Assembly (NCBI GenBank): GCA_964016885.1
Contig: OZ024740.1
Span: 161,138,001-161,202,000, forward strand
DNA: 64,000 nt
Direction: 5' to 3'
DNA from: Eledone cirrhosa
Lineage: Eukaryota
Shown: one piece after another, positions 1,684-6,990 of the stretch
Layout of the letters: every line of letters starts with the position of its first letter
Numbering within the stretch: the first letter of the stretch is position 1
Translations under genes and position numbers: made by a program
The notes under the pieces: generated by a model
Database searches by the model: none
Seen by the model: only the letters and a program-made list of their open reading frames with translations
Told to the model about the DNA's origin: nothing

Positions 1684-2163
1684 GAATAGAATGAAACGAA
1701 ATTTCATTTCTCACTCTTAGTACGGCACTTACTTAAATGTAAGTATGTATGTATACGTACATACATATATGTATACAGACGTACAGTAGTATGTATATAT
1801 ATATATACATACATGCACACATATATATATGCACGTATCGGTTTACCGAACATTTATTATAATGCTCGGTTTGTTTGTTTGTAAACAAACAGCCCGAATT
1901 ACGCCGTACAGTGTTTAGGCAACCACGTCACCTTTTTGTTCAACACTGACACAGGAACGATGTACTAGTTTCAAGCTTATTAGCTATCGTCAGCATCATA
2001 TACCTTCCTGCCAGATGGTTGAACGTCTGAAAGTATATACTTTCCTTATGCATATTAACGGCTGAGCAGCCTAATTTGCATATCGAGTGAGTTCAGTCGG
2101 CCGGGCACACCGAAAACGATAAATGGAATAGAATGAAACGAAATTTCATTTCTCACTCTTAGT
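1684..2163 (-). mobile_element. Retrozyme-like non-coding element, family A, copy 1 (442-nt monomer plus ~38-nt terminal redundancy)
   Basis: gaatagaatgaaacgaaatttcatttctcactcttagt occurs at 1684 and again at 2126; the element contains a hammerhead and is homologous, in reverse orientation, to 6512-6990; no ORF. Confidence 0.8.
1959..1997 (-). ncRNA. Type I hammerhead ribozyme (family A)
   Basis: Minus strand GATG-CTGACGA-TAGCTAATAAGCTT-GAAA-CTAG-TA-CATC: stem I GATG/CATC, stem II AGCT/AGCT, palindromic stem III ACTAGT, GUA cleavage triplet. Confidence 0.9.
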
Positions 2164-2281
2164 TGACGGACCCGACGTATTTAACAATGCCAGGACCGGT
2201 TGCATTTGACCGTACTCAATCAGTGTATACACATAGTTATTCGCTTCAACATAACACATGTAAACGGGTGTCTATATTAGT

Positions 2282-2395
2282 TACCGGACTCGAGTTTCGG
2301 CCACACTTAATGCAGGAATAGGGTGTACTGCAGCCCCTGTCTGAATATATTATGCAACAGCGCATAATCGTCGTATGTGGGTTCATCAGCGGGTA
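2282..2395 (-). ncRNA. Type I hammerhead with long branched stem II (family B, copy 1)
   Basis: Minus strand cCCG-CTGATGA-acccacat...gtgtggcc-GAAA-CTCGAG-TC-CGG; palindromic stem III ACTCGAGT, GUC triplet. Confidence 0.85.
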
Positions 2396-2897
2396 TTGCC
2401 TAATCAATAACCAATCGATCGAAAAGTTCAACCCCCATACCATGCTGGCCATAACTATATGTGACGGCCAACACAGTAAAGTGATTAGCAACTGGAATCT
2501 CAGCCAACGTGTCTCAAACACACATTGATAAGATAGTGAAAAGTTGGTTATTAGAAAAAGTAATTCCACATCTTTGCACAGTAGAATAGTAGCATTCAGC
2601 TCTAGTCTCCAAGTCCCATGGCAATAGGATGGCGATGGTAACAGTGGTAGGGCCCAGAACCTTTAACGGACATTAAATGCCTCCATCCACTATACAGCGA
2701 TATAGAGTGGCGTGTTGGTAGCGGTAGTCACGTGCGTAGACCATTCTATCTCACAACTTAAACGATTCAAAATGCGAGTGAGAGAGAAAAAAAAATTAAT
2801 AGCAGGAATTAGAGCGCATATCAAAACAAAAACACAATAAAAAAGTGAAAACTTGTTTAATTTACTCTCAATAGGCTGCTAGTTGGGAGATAATAAT

Positions 2898-3176
2898 AAT
2901 TGTTTCTACTTTCGGCACTTTATTTTATCGATCCCGTAAGGATGAAAGGCAAAGTCAACCTCGGCGGGATTTGAACTTGGGAGATAATAATAATTGTTTC
3001 TATTTAGGCACAAGGCCAGCAATTACCTAGTGCATTACTGGTACTTTATTTTATCGACCTCGTAAGGATGAAAGGCAAAGTCAGCCTCGGCGGGATTTGA
3101 ACTCAGATCGTAAAGGGACGTAACTATGCTGGAAAGAATGGCGTCCGACCCTCTACCATTACTGCCAATCCACCAC
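2898..3176 (-). mobile_element. tRNA-derived SINE family 1 (Meta/MESC-like domain): one truncated and one near-full copy in tandem
   Basis: Reverse complement of the copy at 14544-14730; B-box gagttcaaatccc followed by ctttgcctttcatcctt..gtcgataaaataaagtacc. Confidence 0.85.
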
Positions 3177-3342
3177 TCTTGGGAGATAATAATAATGATA
3201 AGTTGACGAACCCGGCGTATTTAACAATGCCAGGACCGGTTGCATTTCAGCGTATTCAATAGATAATGTAGAATACATTCCAGATTATACACATAGTTAT
3301 TCACTTCAACATAACACACGTAAACGGGTGTCTATATTAGTT

Positions 3343-3522: not shown

Positions 3523-4119
3523 CAGTGGCAAAGGGTAACCTGGTAAGCAGGGCATGAAGTTCAATCGCCATGGCGGAAAGTGGGGCTGTGCAGCCTTACA
3601 CACCCCCAATTCCCTCTAAATGACTCTCCCGGTCAAAGCCGCATATAGTGTTATCTAGTGCGTGTGTATGTATGTTATCTTTTTATGTGTCTACGATTTA
3701 GTAAGCAGCCATTCTGCTTGCTTCAACCGACGCTGTCATGTGTTGTGTGTATGTGTGTGTGTGTGTGTGTGTGTGTGTTGTCTTTTTATGTGTCTACGAT
3801 TTAGCAAGCAGCCAAAATTCTGCCTGATTCAACCGACGCTGTCGTGTGTTTGTGTGTGTGTGTGTTTGTGTGTATGTGTGTGTGTGTTTGTGTGTGTGTG
3901 ATCTTGTTATGTGTCTACGGTTTAGCAAGGAACCAAACTTCCGCTTGCTTCAGCCGACGCTGCCGTGTGTGTGTATGTGTGTGTGTGTGTTATCTTGTTA
4001 TGTGTCTACGATTTAGTAAGCAGCAAAAATTCTGCTTGCTTCAACCGACGCAATTGATCAACTCAAGATTCTATAACTCATGCACTGCATGAGTTGCATG
4101 CACGCACCCTTCACCCCTG
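3523..4119. mobile_element. Non-autonomous hAT-like TIR element with four internal ~100-120-nt tandem units
   Basis: Imperfect TIR CAGTGGCAAAGGGT / ACCCTTCACCCCTG; flanks atatgtat and gtatgtat resemble an 8-bp TSD; unit tatgtgtctacgatttagcaagcag...ctgcttgcttcaaccgacgc repeated four times at 3675-4050. Confidence 0.6.
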
Positions 4120-4690
4120 GTATGTATATATATACTCATGTATATATACATACGTATGTATATATACATACGTATAATTTATACGTATGTATATACATAC
4201 GTATAAATATATATAAGTATGTATATATACGTATGTATATATATATATATATATATATATATATATATATATATATATATATATATATAAATATATATAT
4301 ATATATACATACTTATATATGTTTATATATATATACACATACGTATATATATATATGTATATATACATAAGTATATATATATAAATACGTAAATATATAT
4401 ATACATATATATATATATATATGTATGTATATATATATATATGTATATATATATGTATGTATATATATGTATATATATATATGTATATATATATGAATAT
4501 ATATATATATGTATATATATATATGTATATATATATGTGTGTGTGTATATATATATATATATATATGCATATATATACACTTATGTATAGATGTAAATAT
4601 ATATGTATATATATATATACATGTATATATATATATATATATATATATATATATATATATATATATATATATATATATATATATATATAT
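4120..4690. repeat. (TA)n-rich compound microsatellite (representative of dozens in the window)
   Basis: Direct reading; similar tracts at 1310-1685, 7258-8058, 21520-22210, 24940-25822, 26197-27250, 30250-30510 and elsewhere. Confidence 0.98.
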
Positions 4691-4800
4691 AGTTATACTT
4701 GGGGAGAGTCATATTGTTGTAATAATATTGCCAGAATTAATAACAGAACACACTCACTGTTAGGTTGGTTTTCGCTTATATAACTTTAACTTTGATAACT
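4691..4800 (-). mobile_element. Isolated PLE pseudo-LTR end fragment (Neptune-related family)
   Basis: gttatacttggggagagtcatatt...cagaacacactcactgttaggttggttttcgct matches 13684, 14390-14472, 16235-16329 and 23149-23250. Confidence 0.7.
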
Positions 4801-6435
4801 TTTATTGGTTGTGGTCAGTATTAGCTCAGGCCATGTCTAACTTATTAGCACCACCTAGCTAAGTCTTACAAATCAGGAGTTGGCAACCATGGCCCATCCA
4901 AGTAGAGAGTTATTGTTTACGGAGGCATATCCGTGTGTAGAAGGTTTATCCGGGATTTCTTGAAGGAATTTGTCCTAATTCTTGAACTTGATGGGGTCTG
5001 TTTCTGTTTTAATGTGTTTTGGTGTAATGTTAAAGAGAGCAGGGCCAATTGGGGTGAAATAATTGTGCCGTATTGTTGTTATGAGATGTGAATGAGATTT
5101 TTGTCGTGGGCGGATAGCACGGGGCCCAAGCCTTGGGTGTACTTTAAAGGTGATGTCACCATCATTTGGGCAAAGCTGATGTAATATTTTCCACATCATG
5201 CAGATAATGTAGCGCTCACGGCGATGTTGGAGAGAATAAAGGTTGCATTTTTCTAATCGACTCCAATAGTCAAGGCCTGTCATGCCATCTATCTTTTTTG
5301 TAATTGATTTTGGGGTGCTACAACTTTCATGATACTTTGTTTCGTGTGGGGAGACAATAGTATTCAAGGTGGGCTCGGACAAAAGTGGAGAAGAGAAGGA
5401 TAACAGTGTAGATATCTCTCGACTGGGAGATTCTGAAAATCCAGGAACACATTCTGCGGGCTATGTCAACTTTGCTGTTTATACGAGTGGCCCAGCTTAT
5501 GTTGTTGTCCACAAGTCTCTGATGATGTTGCATGCTACGAGAGTTTCACTTGAAGGAAGAGAGTATGGGAGTTTCAGGGCATCCTTTTAACCAAAGTGGA
5601 TTAACTCGAACCTATCCTCATTCAACATTATATTGTTCTTCTCTGCCCATTGGATAACAGCCAGTAGGTCTGCCTGAAGGCAAGTCCGGTTACCCACCTC
5701 ATTGATGACCCTTTGGAGCTTAGAATCATTTGCGAAGATTCTTATGTTGCTGTGCATGATGATGTCAGTAATGTCATTAATGTAGATGAGGAAAAGAAGT
5801 GGGCCCAACACAGTGCTTTGTGGGACGCCACTGATGACTTTGGCTCGGCTTGATTTTACTCCTTCGACTACATGTTGGGCTCTGTCTGTCAGGAAACACT
5901 TGATCCACTGTAGCAACTTTCCAGAGACACCAATATTGATTAGTTTTTTTAATAGAATCTTATTATCAACACTGTGAAAGGCCTTGTTGAAATCAATGTA
6001 GATGACATCAGTGTTGGATCCCTCTCCCAAAGCTCTCAAAACATCATCAAAGTGATGCAGGTACTGCGTTAGGCAGTCCATTCTATTACGGAATCCACGT
6101 TGGTTGGAGTTCAGCAGGCCGTTGCTTTCGAGAAATTGGGTTATCTGTGATCTCACCACCCTCTCAAATACCTTGATGATATGAGAGGTGAGTGAAATCG
6201 GGCGGTAGTTCTTTGCAAGGGACTTATTTCACCTTTTGAAAACTGGGACAGAAGGATTTCAGGAATATAGCCAGTATCAAGTAAGTTCCTCCACAGATTA
6301 GCAAGAGGAGATGCAAGTTGGTGTCGACACACCTTCGGGACACAAGCAGGGAACCTATCGGGGCCGAGTGCTGAATTGTGTTTAATTTCGTTTATTGCCG
6401 CTAAAACATCAGGGGCGCAAAACATTATGTCCGAT
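4800..6435 (-). mobile_element. Decayed LINE ORF2 (CR1/L2-group reverse transcriptase), 5'-truncated
   Basis: Frameshifted ORFs with DVIYIDFNKAFHSV, SGVPQSTVLGPLLFLIYINDI, IFANDSKL and DYWSRLEKCNLYSLQHRRERY. Confidence 0.9.
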
Positions 6436-6511
6436 AATATATATATATATATATATATATATATATATATATATATATATATATATATATATATATATAT
6501 AGAAAGTGAGC

Positions 6512-6990
6512 TGAATCCATACGTACATATATATATATATGTGTGCATGTATGTATATATATATACATACAACTGTACGTCTGTATACATATATGTAAGT
6601 ACGTGTACATACTTATATTTAAGTAACAGCCGTACTAAGAGTGGGAAATGAAATTTCGTTTCATTTTTTCTGTTTATCGTTTTCGGTGCACCCGGCCGAT
6701 TAACCCACTCGATATGCAAATTGGGCTACTCAGCCGTTAATATGCATAAGGTAAGTATATACTTTCAGACGTTCAACAATCTGGCAGGAAGGTATGCGTT
6801 GCTGACGATAGCTAATAAGCTTGAAACTAGTACAGCGTTCCTTTGTCAGTGTTGAACAAACGAGCAACGATGGTTGCTAGTCACTACGGCTTAATACGGG
6901 ATGTTTGTTTACAAACACACCGAGCATTATATAAATGTTCGGTGAATCCATACGTACATATATGTATGTGTGCATGTATGTATATATATA
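6512..6990 (+). mobile_element. Retrozyme-like element family A, copy 2 (431-nt monomer, different circular permutation)
   Basis: tgaatccatacgtacatata at 6512 and 6943; same sequence blocks as 1684-2163 but opened at a different point; (TA)n on both sides. Confidence 0.8.
6797..6837 (+). ncRNA. Type I hammerhead ribozyme (family A)
   Basis: CGTTG-CTGACGA-TAGCTAATAAGCTT-GAAA-CTAG-TA-CAGCG; intact core. Confidence 0.9.

Follow-up and report, generated by a model that had tools for sequence, protein, structure and literature searches.

The window analysed here, a stretch of 64,000 nucleotides of the Eledone cirrhosa genome (contig OZ024740.1, positions 161,138,001 to 161,202,000 of the forward strand), contains two copies, A and B, of a short non-coding unit that carries a hammerhead ribozyme motif. 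The features of the two copies and their flanks are the following, where S and L denote the short and the long 3' end of the family:

1399-1685, no strand: (TA)n followed by an (AG)n microsatellite at the 3' end of copy A, the presumed target
1684-2163, minus: copy A, a 5'-truncated partial tandem of the A-type subfamily
1963-1993, minus: type I hammerhead core of copy A, predicted cut after 1963
6437-6501, no strand: (TA)n 5' of copy B, with 10-11 further bases between it and the copy
6512-6990, plus: copy B, a 431-nt monomer plus 48 nt
6519-6618, plus: internal TA-rich tract of copy B, predicted to form a long hairpin
6619-6677, plus: "tail" between the family ends S (6618) and L (6677), with a short hairpin just 5' of L
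6771-6857, plus: extended hairpin of copy B continuing stem I (z -4.0 against shuffled sequences)
6797-6837, plus: core of copy B with stem I (6797-6801 paired with 6833-6837)
6802-6832, plus: type I hammerhead core of copy B, predicted cut after 6832
6977-7019, no strand: (TA)n at the 3' end of copy B, the presumed target

Copy A, read from 2163 to 1684, consists of a 442-nt monomer followed by an exact repeat of its own start (38/38), and in copy B the 48 nt that follow the monomer repeat its start at 41 of 48 ungapped positions, the mismatches being confined to the TA tract. When aligned in permuted order, the copies are 88% (323/367) and 91% (128/141) identical, and both of the permuted copies described in the initial annotation (442 + 38 and 431 + 48 nt) are thus real. 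The "terminal redundancy" ascribed to them is simply a 5' truncation slightly past one unit. At its 3' side copy A stops 7 nt before the L end, the identical point at which another insertion (L138) stops, and copy B is atypical in ending inside the TA tract, where it merges with the flanking (TA)n. The S end lies at the 3' edge of this tract (about 6618), whose length differs from insertion to insertion. As had been claimed, no reading frame is conserved across the two monomers: on the ribozyme strand the longest ATG-led frames, of 29 aa in A and 70 aa in B, are of low complexity and have nothing in common.

The 31-nt core is identical in copies A (1993-1963) and B. In copy B its stem II has 4 bp with U.U as the basal pair, its stem III has 2 bp and a palindromic loop, and cleavage is predicted directly after the GUA at 6830-6832. 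Neither copy matched any hammerhead family in focused Rfam scans, even with the threshold relaxed to E<=10, and in the scan of the whole window the 150 rows listed of 269 held only microsatellite-driven miRNA matches, all below the gathering score; the ribozyme call therefore rests on core motif, folding and conservation pattern, which agree with the earlier description of a complete hammerhead in each copy. Type I topology and stems I-III are found in each unit by motif, folding and pair counts, and stem I differs between the copies and stays paired, as first noticed (CGTTG/CAGCG in B, GATG/CATC in A). In 166 units the stem I pair 6799:6835 is TG in 115, AT in 29 and GT in 15, pair types that reflect a few subfamily events and not 44 independent ones. 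Among the common variants of the core listed from contigs that had not been selected for it, only N7 (6806) and loop 2 (6816) are affected. The conservation of the core in a 466-nt subfamily is not independent evidence, because that subfamily was found with the core pattern.

The 3.0-Gb genome contains at least 24,157 exact ribozyme cores (10,697 + 13,460) and no exact match to the reversed core, so that the matches are not due to chance. The unit is cyclic, 420-510 nt long, with a GC content of about 0.37, and is both tandem and dispersed; it closes on itself with a constant period, and insertions range from about 180 nt up to 15 ribozymes on one arm. Viral contigs gave no match. Six sequencing runs of unrecorded kind matched, no RNA run being listed among the matches, and contigs, which cannot show RNA ends, came from four of the six. 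The proposed retrozyme-like, non-coding family of dispersed reverse-transcribed copies is supported. The traits of plant-type LTR retrozymes are absent, the hammerhead being of type I and not type III and the units tandem. No arm map shows an LTR pair. Judged by its sequence features, this is a new non-LTR retrozyme family of an already known class.

The ends of the insertions are informative on how they were made. In 115 insertions, 140 of 168 outer ends fall at two fixed 3' sites about 60 nt apart (76 at L, 64 at S), located about 215-285 nt past the predicted cut, and 28 lie at neither site, while the 5' ends are scattered by variable truncation; the permutations expected at both ends are thus found at the 5' starts only. 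The sites end in ...CATACTTA(T/C)AT and ...TTTAT, motifs that could match (TA)n over only about 3-5 nt, and a (TA)n repeat directly follows 120 of the 140 S or L ends, against a background of 21%, which bears out the suggested (TA)n targets. The other suggestion, that the internal TA tract anneals to the target, does not describe the main route, since only about 7 of the 168 ends, copy B among them, lie inside the tract. Genome-wide, the L motif of one subfamily ends in (AT)n in 1,896 cases, and in 1,882 the unit continues past it. Target duplications are unreadable inside (TA)n, and the single one found, of 9 bp, is at L117. Besides partial tandems there are inverted, head-to-head copies with the tail on one end only, and S is paired with L in 58 of the 59 whose two ends are both classifiable (34/35, 15/15 and, read by eye, 9/9), a count that leaves out 21 inverted insertions with one end at neither site. 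Microhomology at the central junction is weak (at least 2 shared bases in 11 of 37, against 17% by chance).

Two fixed 3' ends with variable 5' truncation, and the S + L pairing, match the two-start-site tail of Penelope-like elements (PLEs). The retrozyme class is already described, and its link to PLEs is already argued in print, where copying of animal retrozyme circles by PLE enzymes has been proposed. The non-LTR retrozymes of coral, mussel and axolotl (Cervera and de la Pena, 2020; PMC7229834) are, like the present family, short tandem units that are low in GC, do not code for protein, bear a type I hammerhead and number in the thousands, and the axolotl HHR_Amex2, as described there, resembles our core in its 2-bp stem III and in the U.U mismatch with which stem II begins. 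The unit described here is at or above their size range, and their circular RNA has been shown, the evidence here being indirect and from DNA; the results and discussion of that study propose PLE mobilisation without mention of fixed ends, a tail, paired inversions or targeting of (TA)n. A more recent preprint (Li, Clavereau, Pollet, 2026; bioRxiv 10.64898/2026.07.22.740005) treats retrozymes as non-autonomous PLE derivatives, the same class with the same proposed partner, and describes dispersed monomers and multimers as seen here. Its authors argue from co-occurrence and from the phylogeny of pseudo-LTRs, for the most part in vertebrates; the 35 species include no named mollusc class, and insertion ends are not analysed in the sections consulted. 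Here the insertion signature was found, and pseudo-LTR homology was not among the regions compared.

Among the PLEs themselves, Poseidon of Anolis carolinensis (PAc; Frangieh et al., 2024; PMC11167929) shares two internal RT start sites that bound a tail, AT-rich targets, cutting and extension of both strands, and a ribozyme upstream of the start sites. PAc differs in being autonomous, in start sites about 100 nt past the cut, and in showing no start-site difference between strands, where the present insertions almost always combine one S and one L. Partial tandems, an inverted 5'-truncated copy, a tail usually on one end, a (TA)n bias and non-autonomous head-to-tail families are likewise found in the Naiad and Chlamys PLEs and in non-autonomous Chlamys elements such as MRC1 (Craig et al., 2021), although Naiad and Chlamys are without hammerheads and their tail is of 30-40 nt, against about 60 nt here. 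The way in which tandem, inverted insertions with a single tail arise from PLEs has been called unresolved in the literature. PLE-type RT and GIY-YIG frames occur in the window, and Pfam recognised none of the six PLE-like frames tested. To judge from this sequence anatomy, the family is very probably a non-autonomous one mobilised by PLE-type enzymes.

With regard to the template, the sequence continues through the cut site of the ribozyme in about 93% of the units: genome-wide, 24,287 matches extend by 10 nt upstream, across the cut, against 26,047 that extend downstream. These counts replace a sampled test (2 of 168 5' ends at the cut, 4.3 expected), which was biased because the loci had been chosen for containing the core; the same selection inflates the 125 of 140 arms that cross the cut. 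A circular or tandem template, as proposed initially, is supported. In the young insertion L198, which has 4 + 5 ribozymes on opposite arms, the six full units differ by one mismatch in all; 9 of the 19 genome occurrences of its marker lie within it, its unit is carried by none of the other 10, and its source locus is absent from the assembly. Private variants are likewise common to 6/6 units of L251, 5/5 of L182 and 2/2 of L190, and in two young insertions (L198 and L251) they are on both arms. Read-through together with private variants in every unit of young insertions favours a monomeric circle over a linear array transcript, and rolling reverse transcription of such a circle is, on this sequence pattern, the somewhat more probable route. 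Most of the youngest insertions have no private variant and are uninformative, and in older ones adjacent units differ by 3.4%, with no identical adjacent pair in 39; rare variants are shared within no more than 5 of 51 insertions. A single monomeric circle does not account for the mixture of two subfamilies in L103 or the alternating ABAB units of L062 and L115. A dimeric circle was rejected for the ABAB units in L115, where the 5' partial unit matches the wrong phase. In L062, 4 sites distinguish two units of the same phase, and these arrays are better explained by duplication of the DNA at a later time.

In the mechanism that we propose, tandem copies would be transcribed, two ribozymes would cut out a monomer and the monomer would be ligated into a circle. 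A PLE RT/endonuclease would then nick (TA)n and prime cDNA at S or L, and synthesis would run round the circle and halt at a random point; with both DNA strands primed, one cDNA would start from S and the other from L, and the two would be joined head to head. We consider this account as a whole, that is a non-coding retroelement mobilised in trans by an endonuclease-bearing PLE, circular template included, to be reasonably likely. A more specific version, put forward tentatively, is that a PLE RT/endonuclease dimer may cut both (TA)n strands and prime two cDNAs at two different fixed sites of a single monomeric hammerhead circle; each cDNA would roll round it up to about 15 times, and the two would be joined head to head. 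Self-cleavage of the family cannot be assumed, because 8 of 9 Xenopus dimers showed no cleavage, as stated in the preprint (bioRxiv 10.64898/2026.07.22.740005).

The same PLE-driven priming at S and L could also act on linear multimers, transcribed from long master arrays and left uncleaved, in which case the fold of the ribozyme would be kept for another step and the arrays would regain length by unequal crossing-over. Read-through of the cut site fits such a template equally well, long arrays exist, the ABAB arrays look like later DNA duplications, and for PAc in vitro uncleaved RNA is the main substrate and ribozyme mutants still inserted (PMC11167929). Since the L198 source is absent from the assembly, a homogeneous linear master could sit on another haplotype. 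This explanation requires, however, that every insertion-specific unit (L198, L251, L182, L190) had a homogeneous master of its own, and the one marker searched genome-wide revealed neither master nor sibling; we regard it as less likely than the circle. Alternatively, the copies could derive from an autonomous PLE, as remnants of its pseudo-LTRs truncated on the 5' side, if its ORF-bearing copies escaped sampling. The end anatomy is exactly PLE-like, Xenopus retrozymes match PLE pseudo-LTRs according to the same preprint, and our screen covered about 115 insertions with nine window-derived protein queries. Nevertheless, 0/115 insertions had a sense PLE frame fused upstream, which agrees with the annotation's claim of no attached PLE ORF; the 5' flanks of 62 single-arm copies have no common extension, and a self-closing unit of constant period, without a conserved ORF and repeated up to 15 times per arm, makes such an origin very improbable. 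None of the regions downstream of EN (first 107 loci and the window) resembles the monomer, and no partner PLE emerged from this comparison. L117, considered as a fusion to a GIY-YIG gene, proved to be an insertion into such a gene.

Priming of a circle at arbitrary points, or through its TA tract on (TA)n, would yield random permutations, in keeping with the scattered 5' starts and with copy B and about six other ends in the tract. This reading is largely refuted by the fixed ends: with most outer ends at two sites, and half of the L motif occurrences of one subfamily being insertion ends, it is scarcely plausible and could hold only for a minority class. A satellite or other repeat that propagates at the level of DNA, through recombination or as a rolling-circle transposon, and bears an incidental ribozyme-like motif would account for the tandem arrays, the ABAB patterns and the blank Rfam result, but is barely credible at all in view of the 3'-anchored, 5'-truncated polarity, the strict S + L inversion, the target duplication and the restriction of core variation to free positions.

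As a family it adds one more example to a known class, and it is the anatomy of its insertions that makes the PLE mechanism testable, their shape suggesting how Penelope-type enzymes copy hammerhead RNAs into the genome. If the proposed circle-based mechanism is true, it would by itself explain the tandems, the inversions and the one-sided tail of PLEs, and the genome would thereby provide evidence that circular RNAs made by ribozymes truly serve as templates of retrotransposition in animals. The copying of retrozyme circles by PLE enzymes and the origin of tandem, inverted PLE insertions could both be addressed with a small RNA substrate, given the two defined priming sites, the near-strict S + L rule and the existence of one very young subfamily. 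The units of this subfamily are almost identical, and a single marker gives 4,475 matches; seen in L183, the marker was considered as a private variant and is instead a trait of the subfamily.

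Both window copies proved to be as the initial annotation had described them. Copy A (2163 to 1684, minus strand) consists of a 442-nt monomer and an exact repeat of its first 38 nt, and copy B (6512-6990, plus strand) of 431 nt plus 48 nt, the two being 88% alike in permuted order (37 differences over 426 aligned bases), with no ORF in common and an identical 31-nt type I hammerhead core, in which none of the differences falls. The predicted hammerhead, which Rfam did not recognize in either copy, has a 4-bp, U.U-closed stem II, a palindromic 2-bp stem III and a stem I running on into a long hairpin (z –4.0). 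Folded as circles, the monomers are more stable than shuffles (z –8.7 and –6.5), in part because the TA tract is self-complementary. Among the rows listed of a core-variant table that has 7 further rows, N7 and loop 2 are the only positions with common variants, in contigs not chosen by their core. The third stem I pair, read in 166 units, is TG in 115, AT in 29 and GT in 15, which would amount to a few subfamily events.

The window, whose wealth of microsatellites may be octopod-like, lies in a 3.0-Gb assembly that contains 10,697 exact matches to the core and a further 13,460 to its loop-2 variant, against 0 for reversed core controls, in subfamilies with units of ~422-431, 442 and 466-508 nt. 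The family also occurs in contigs from sequencing runs labelled as two other organisms, the best holder of which may be the assembly's own sample; in two contigs of one run so labelled the L end, one of two fixed 3' ends described below, is followed by (AT)n. The family is real and new and its class is already known, and the assignment as retrozyme-like stands: non-LTR retrozymes, their circular RNAs and a proposed Penelope-like element (PLE) partner (PMC7229834, with further invertebrate retrozymes tabulated in its supplements), hammerheads of PLEs (PMC4209133) and a PLE origin argued from co-occurrence and phylogeny (10.64898/2026.07.22.740005) have been reported, and the excerpts of PMC11722881 and PMC12602865 add nothing further on the topic. 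A literature search, with Repbase, Dfam, supplements and most subscription papers outside it, returned no account of this family, nor any of the paired ends in retrozymes reported below. What is added here is the insertion anatomy, which links the family to PLE enzymes and indirectly supports a circular template.

A total of 115 insertions were mapped, from 107 loci and the window, after removal of 13 duplicate loci and 1 insertion cut by a locus edge. Their 168 outer 3' ends fall at two fixed sites ~60 nt apart, S (window equivalent ~6618; 64 ends) and L (6677; 76 ends), or elsewhere (28), and the same S and L ends are found at 29 A-type loci. Each site lies directly 3' of a predicted hairpin, and of the 140 ends at S or L, 120 are followed by (TA)n, vs 21% at random; genome-wide, 1,896 occurrences of the L motif of one subfamily pass into (AT)n, and in 1,882 the sequence reads on. 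Copy A ends 7 nt short of L and is of this class, while the 3' end of copy B is atypical, within the TA tract. The 5' ends are spread, slightly unevenly, across the unit (chi-square p 0.03). Thus, of the dispersed start and end points initially expected, the scatter is seen at the 5' ends only, and the copies are partial tandems, anchored at the 3' end and truncated at the 5' end, rather than random permutations; the proposed annealing of the TA tract to (TA)n targets likewise does not hold.

In 58 of 59 head-to-head insertions (34/35, 15/15 and, among young insertions read by eye, 9/9), one outer end is S and the other L, where independent choice would give about half; 21 inverted insertions with one unclassified end stand outside this count. 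In PLE insertions, partial tandems are accompanied by a truncated copy in inverted orientation, and a tail is mostly present at one end (Craig et al., 2021), and in Poseidon, an autonomous PLE of the anole, the tail is the stretch bounded by two internal RT start sites (PMC11167929). Given these two precedents, S and L are most likely RT start sites. The same two-ended inverted anatomy is also seen in a very abundant short non-coding family (window ~34900 minus and 46170 plus; L002, L044, L056 and L113 among many loci), mostly between (TA)n runs; no hammerhead was seen in the short copies inspected. A long inverted array at L242-L259 (C1:69.578-69.587 Mb) has at least 17 full units, with unit lengths repeating at a period of about three, and at L216-L218 a family copy lies inside a larger tandem of ~760 nt.

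A cleaved linear monomer is ruled out as the usual template, since ~93% of units read through the predicted cut (24,287 cut-crossing patterns vs 26,047 for a downstream control). Rolling copying of one monomeric circle is probably the route taken, a preference that comes from uniform variants within insertions: at locus L198 the S arm (a run of units in one orientation) has 4 ribozymes and the L arm 5, all with the same two variants, and L251, L182 and L190 are similar. The L198 marker has 19 genome matches, 9 of them in L198 and 10 in diverged units. The source of L198 is absent from the assembly, so that a linear master could lie elsewhere; this and the in vitro use of uncleaved RNA by Poseidon (PMC11167929) speak against the circle. 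A linear array transcript is a reading we hold to be rather unlikely. In the youngest subfamily, units differ at 0.57 sites within insertions, 0.66 between opposite arms and 1.37 between insertions. Against the circle count the mixed insertions L103, L062 and L115, the older insertions, with units diverged by 3.4% and 0 of 39 adjacent pairs identical, and the fact that most young insertions are uninformative on the template. Rare variants are common to the units in only 5 of 51 insertions, which also counts against copying from one circle, yet they are enriched (9/186 vs 36/8,398).

With nine window-derived queries, no PLE frame was detected joined in sense to any of the 115 insertions, and the 5' flanks of 62 single-arm copies have no common extension. 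At L117 (2048-4622) a family copy has entered a GIY-YIG gene, accompanied by a duplication of 9 bp, and the locus was rejected as a fusion; part of the chimera is met again in inverted orientation, as though the copy had travelled with the host PLE in a later insertion. The window itself carries PLE-like RT and endonuclease frames, and the following repeats:

2161-2460 and 3201-3460: a further repeat, of ~270 nt and in two copies, the first adjoining the 5' end of copy A
3658-4051: GT-rich tandem, period ~90-120 nt
4975-6420, minus: broken non-LTR RT between copies A and B (RVT_1, E 8e-20), by motif presumably CR1/L2-like
9815-12074, minus; ~24090-24761, plus; 52302-55259, minus: fragmented frames that we take to be PLE-like by their motifs, without Pfam match where tested
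46985 and 47870, minus; 50886, plus: hammerhead-like motifs near the broken PLE-like element
47046-49761: broken PLE-like element with RT, cysteine-rich linker, C-terminal GIY-YIG-like frame and inverted 5' piece, in a Neptune/Nematis-type layout (Craig et al., 2021)

Pfam did not detect the PLE-like frames tested; among the members of their Atlas look-alikes, 28-63% have PF26215 and 11% have PF01541, a lead only. (TA)n also terminates some of these elements, and those compared have no resemblance to the monomer.

Two other repeats with a hammerhead or hammerhead-like motif were met. One is a tandem family of 310-nt period with a similarly U.U-based stem II (L066:170-1325; L095:1137). The other, a repeat ending in (TA)n, carries a third hammerhead-like motif (window 56016, plus; L067, L077, L101, L104 and L119), a degenerate copy of which lies at ~7060-7100, directly 3' of copy B.
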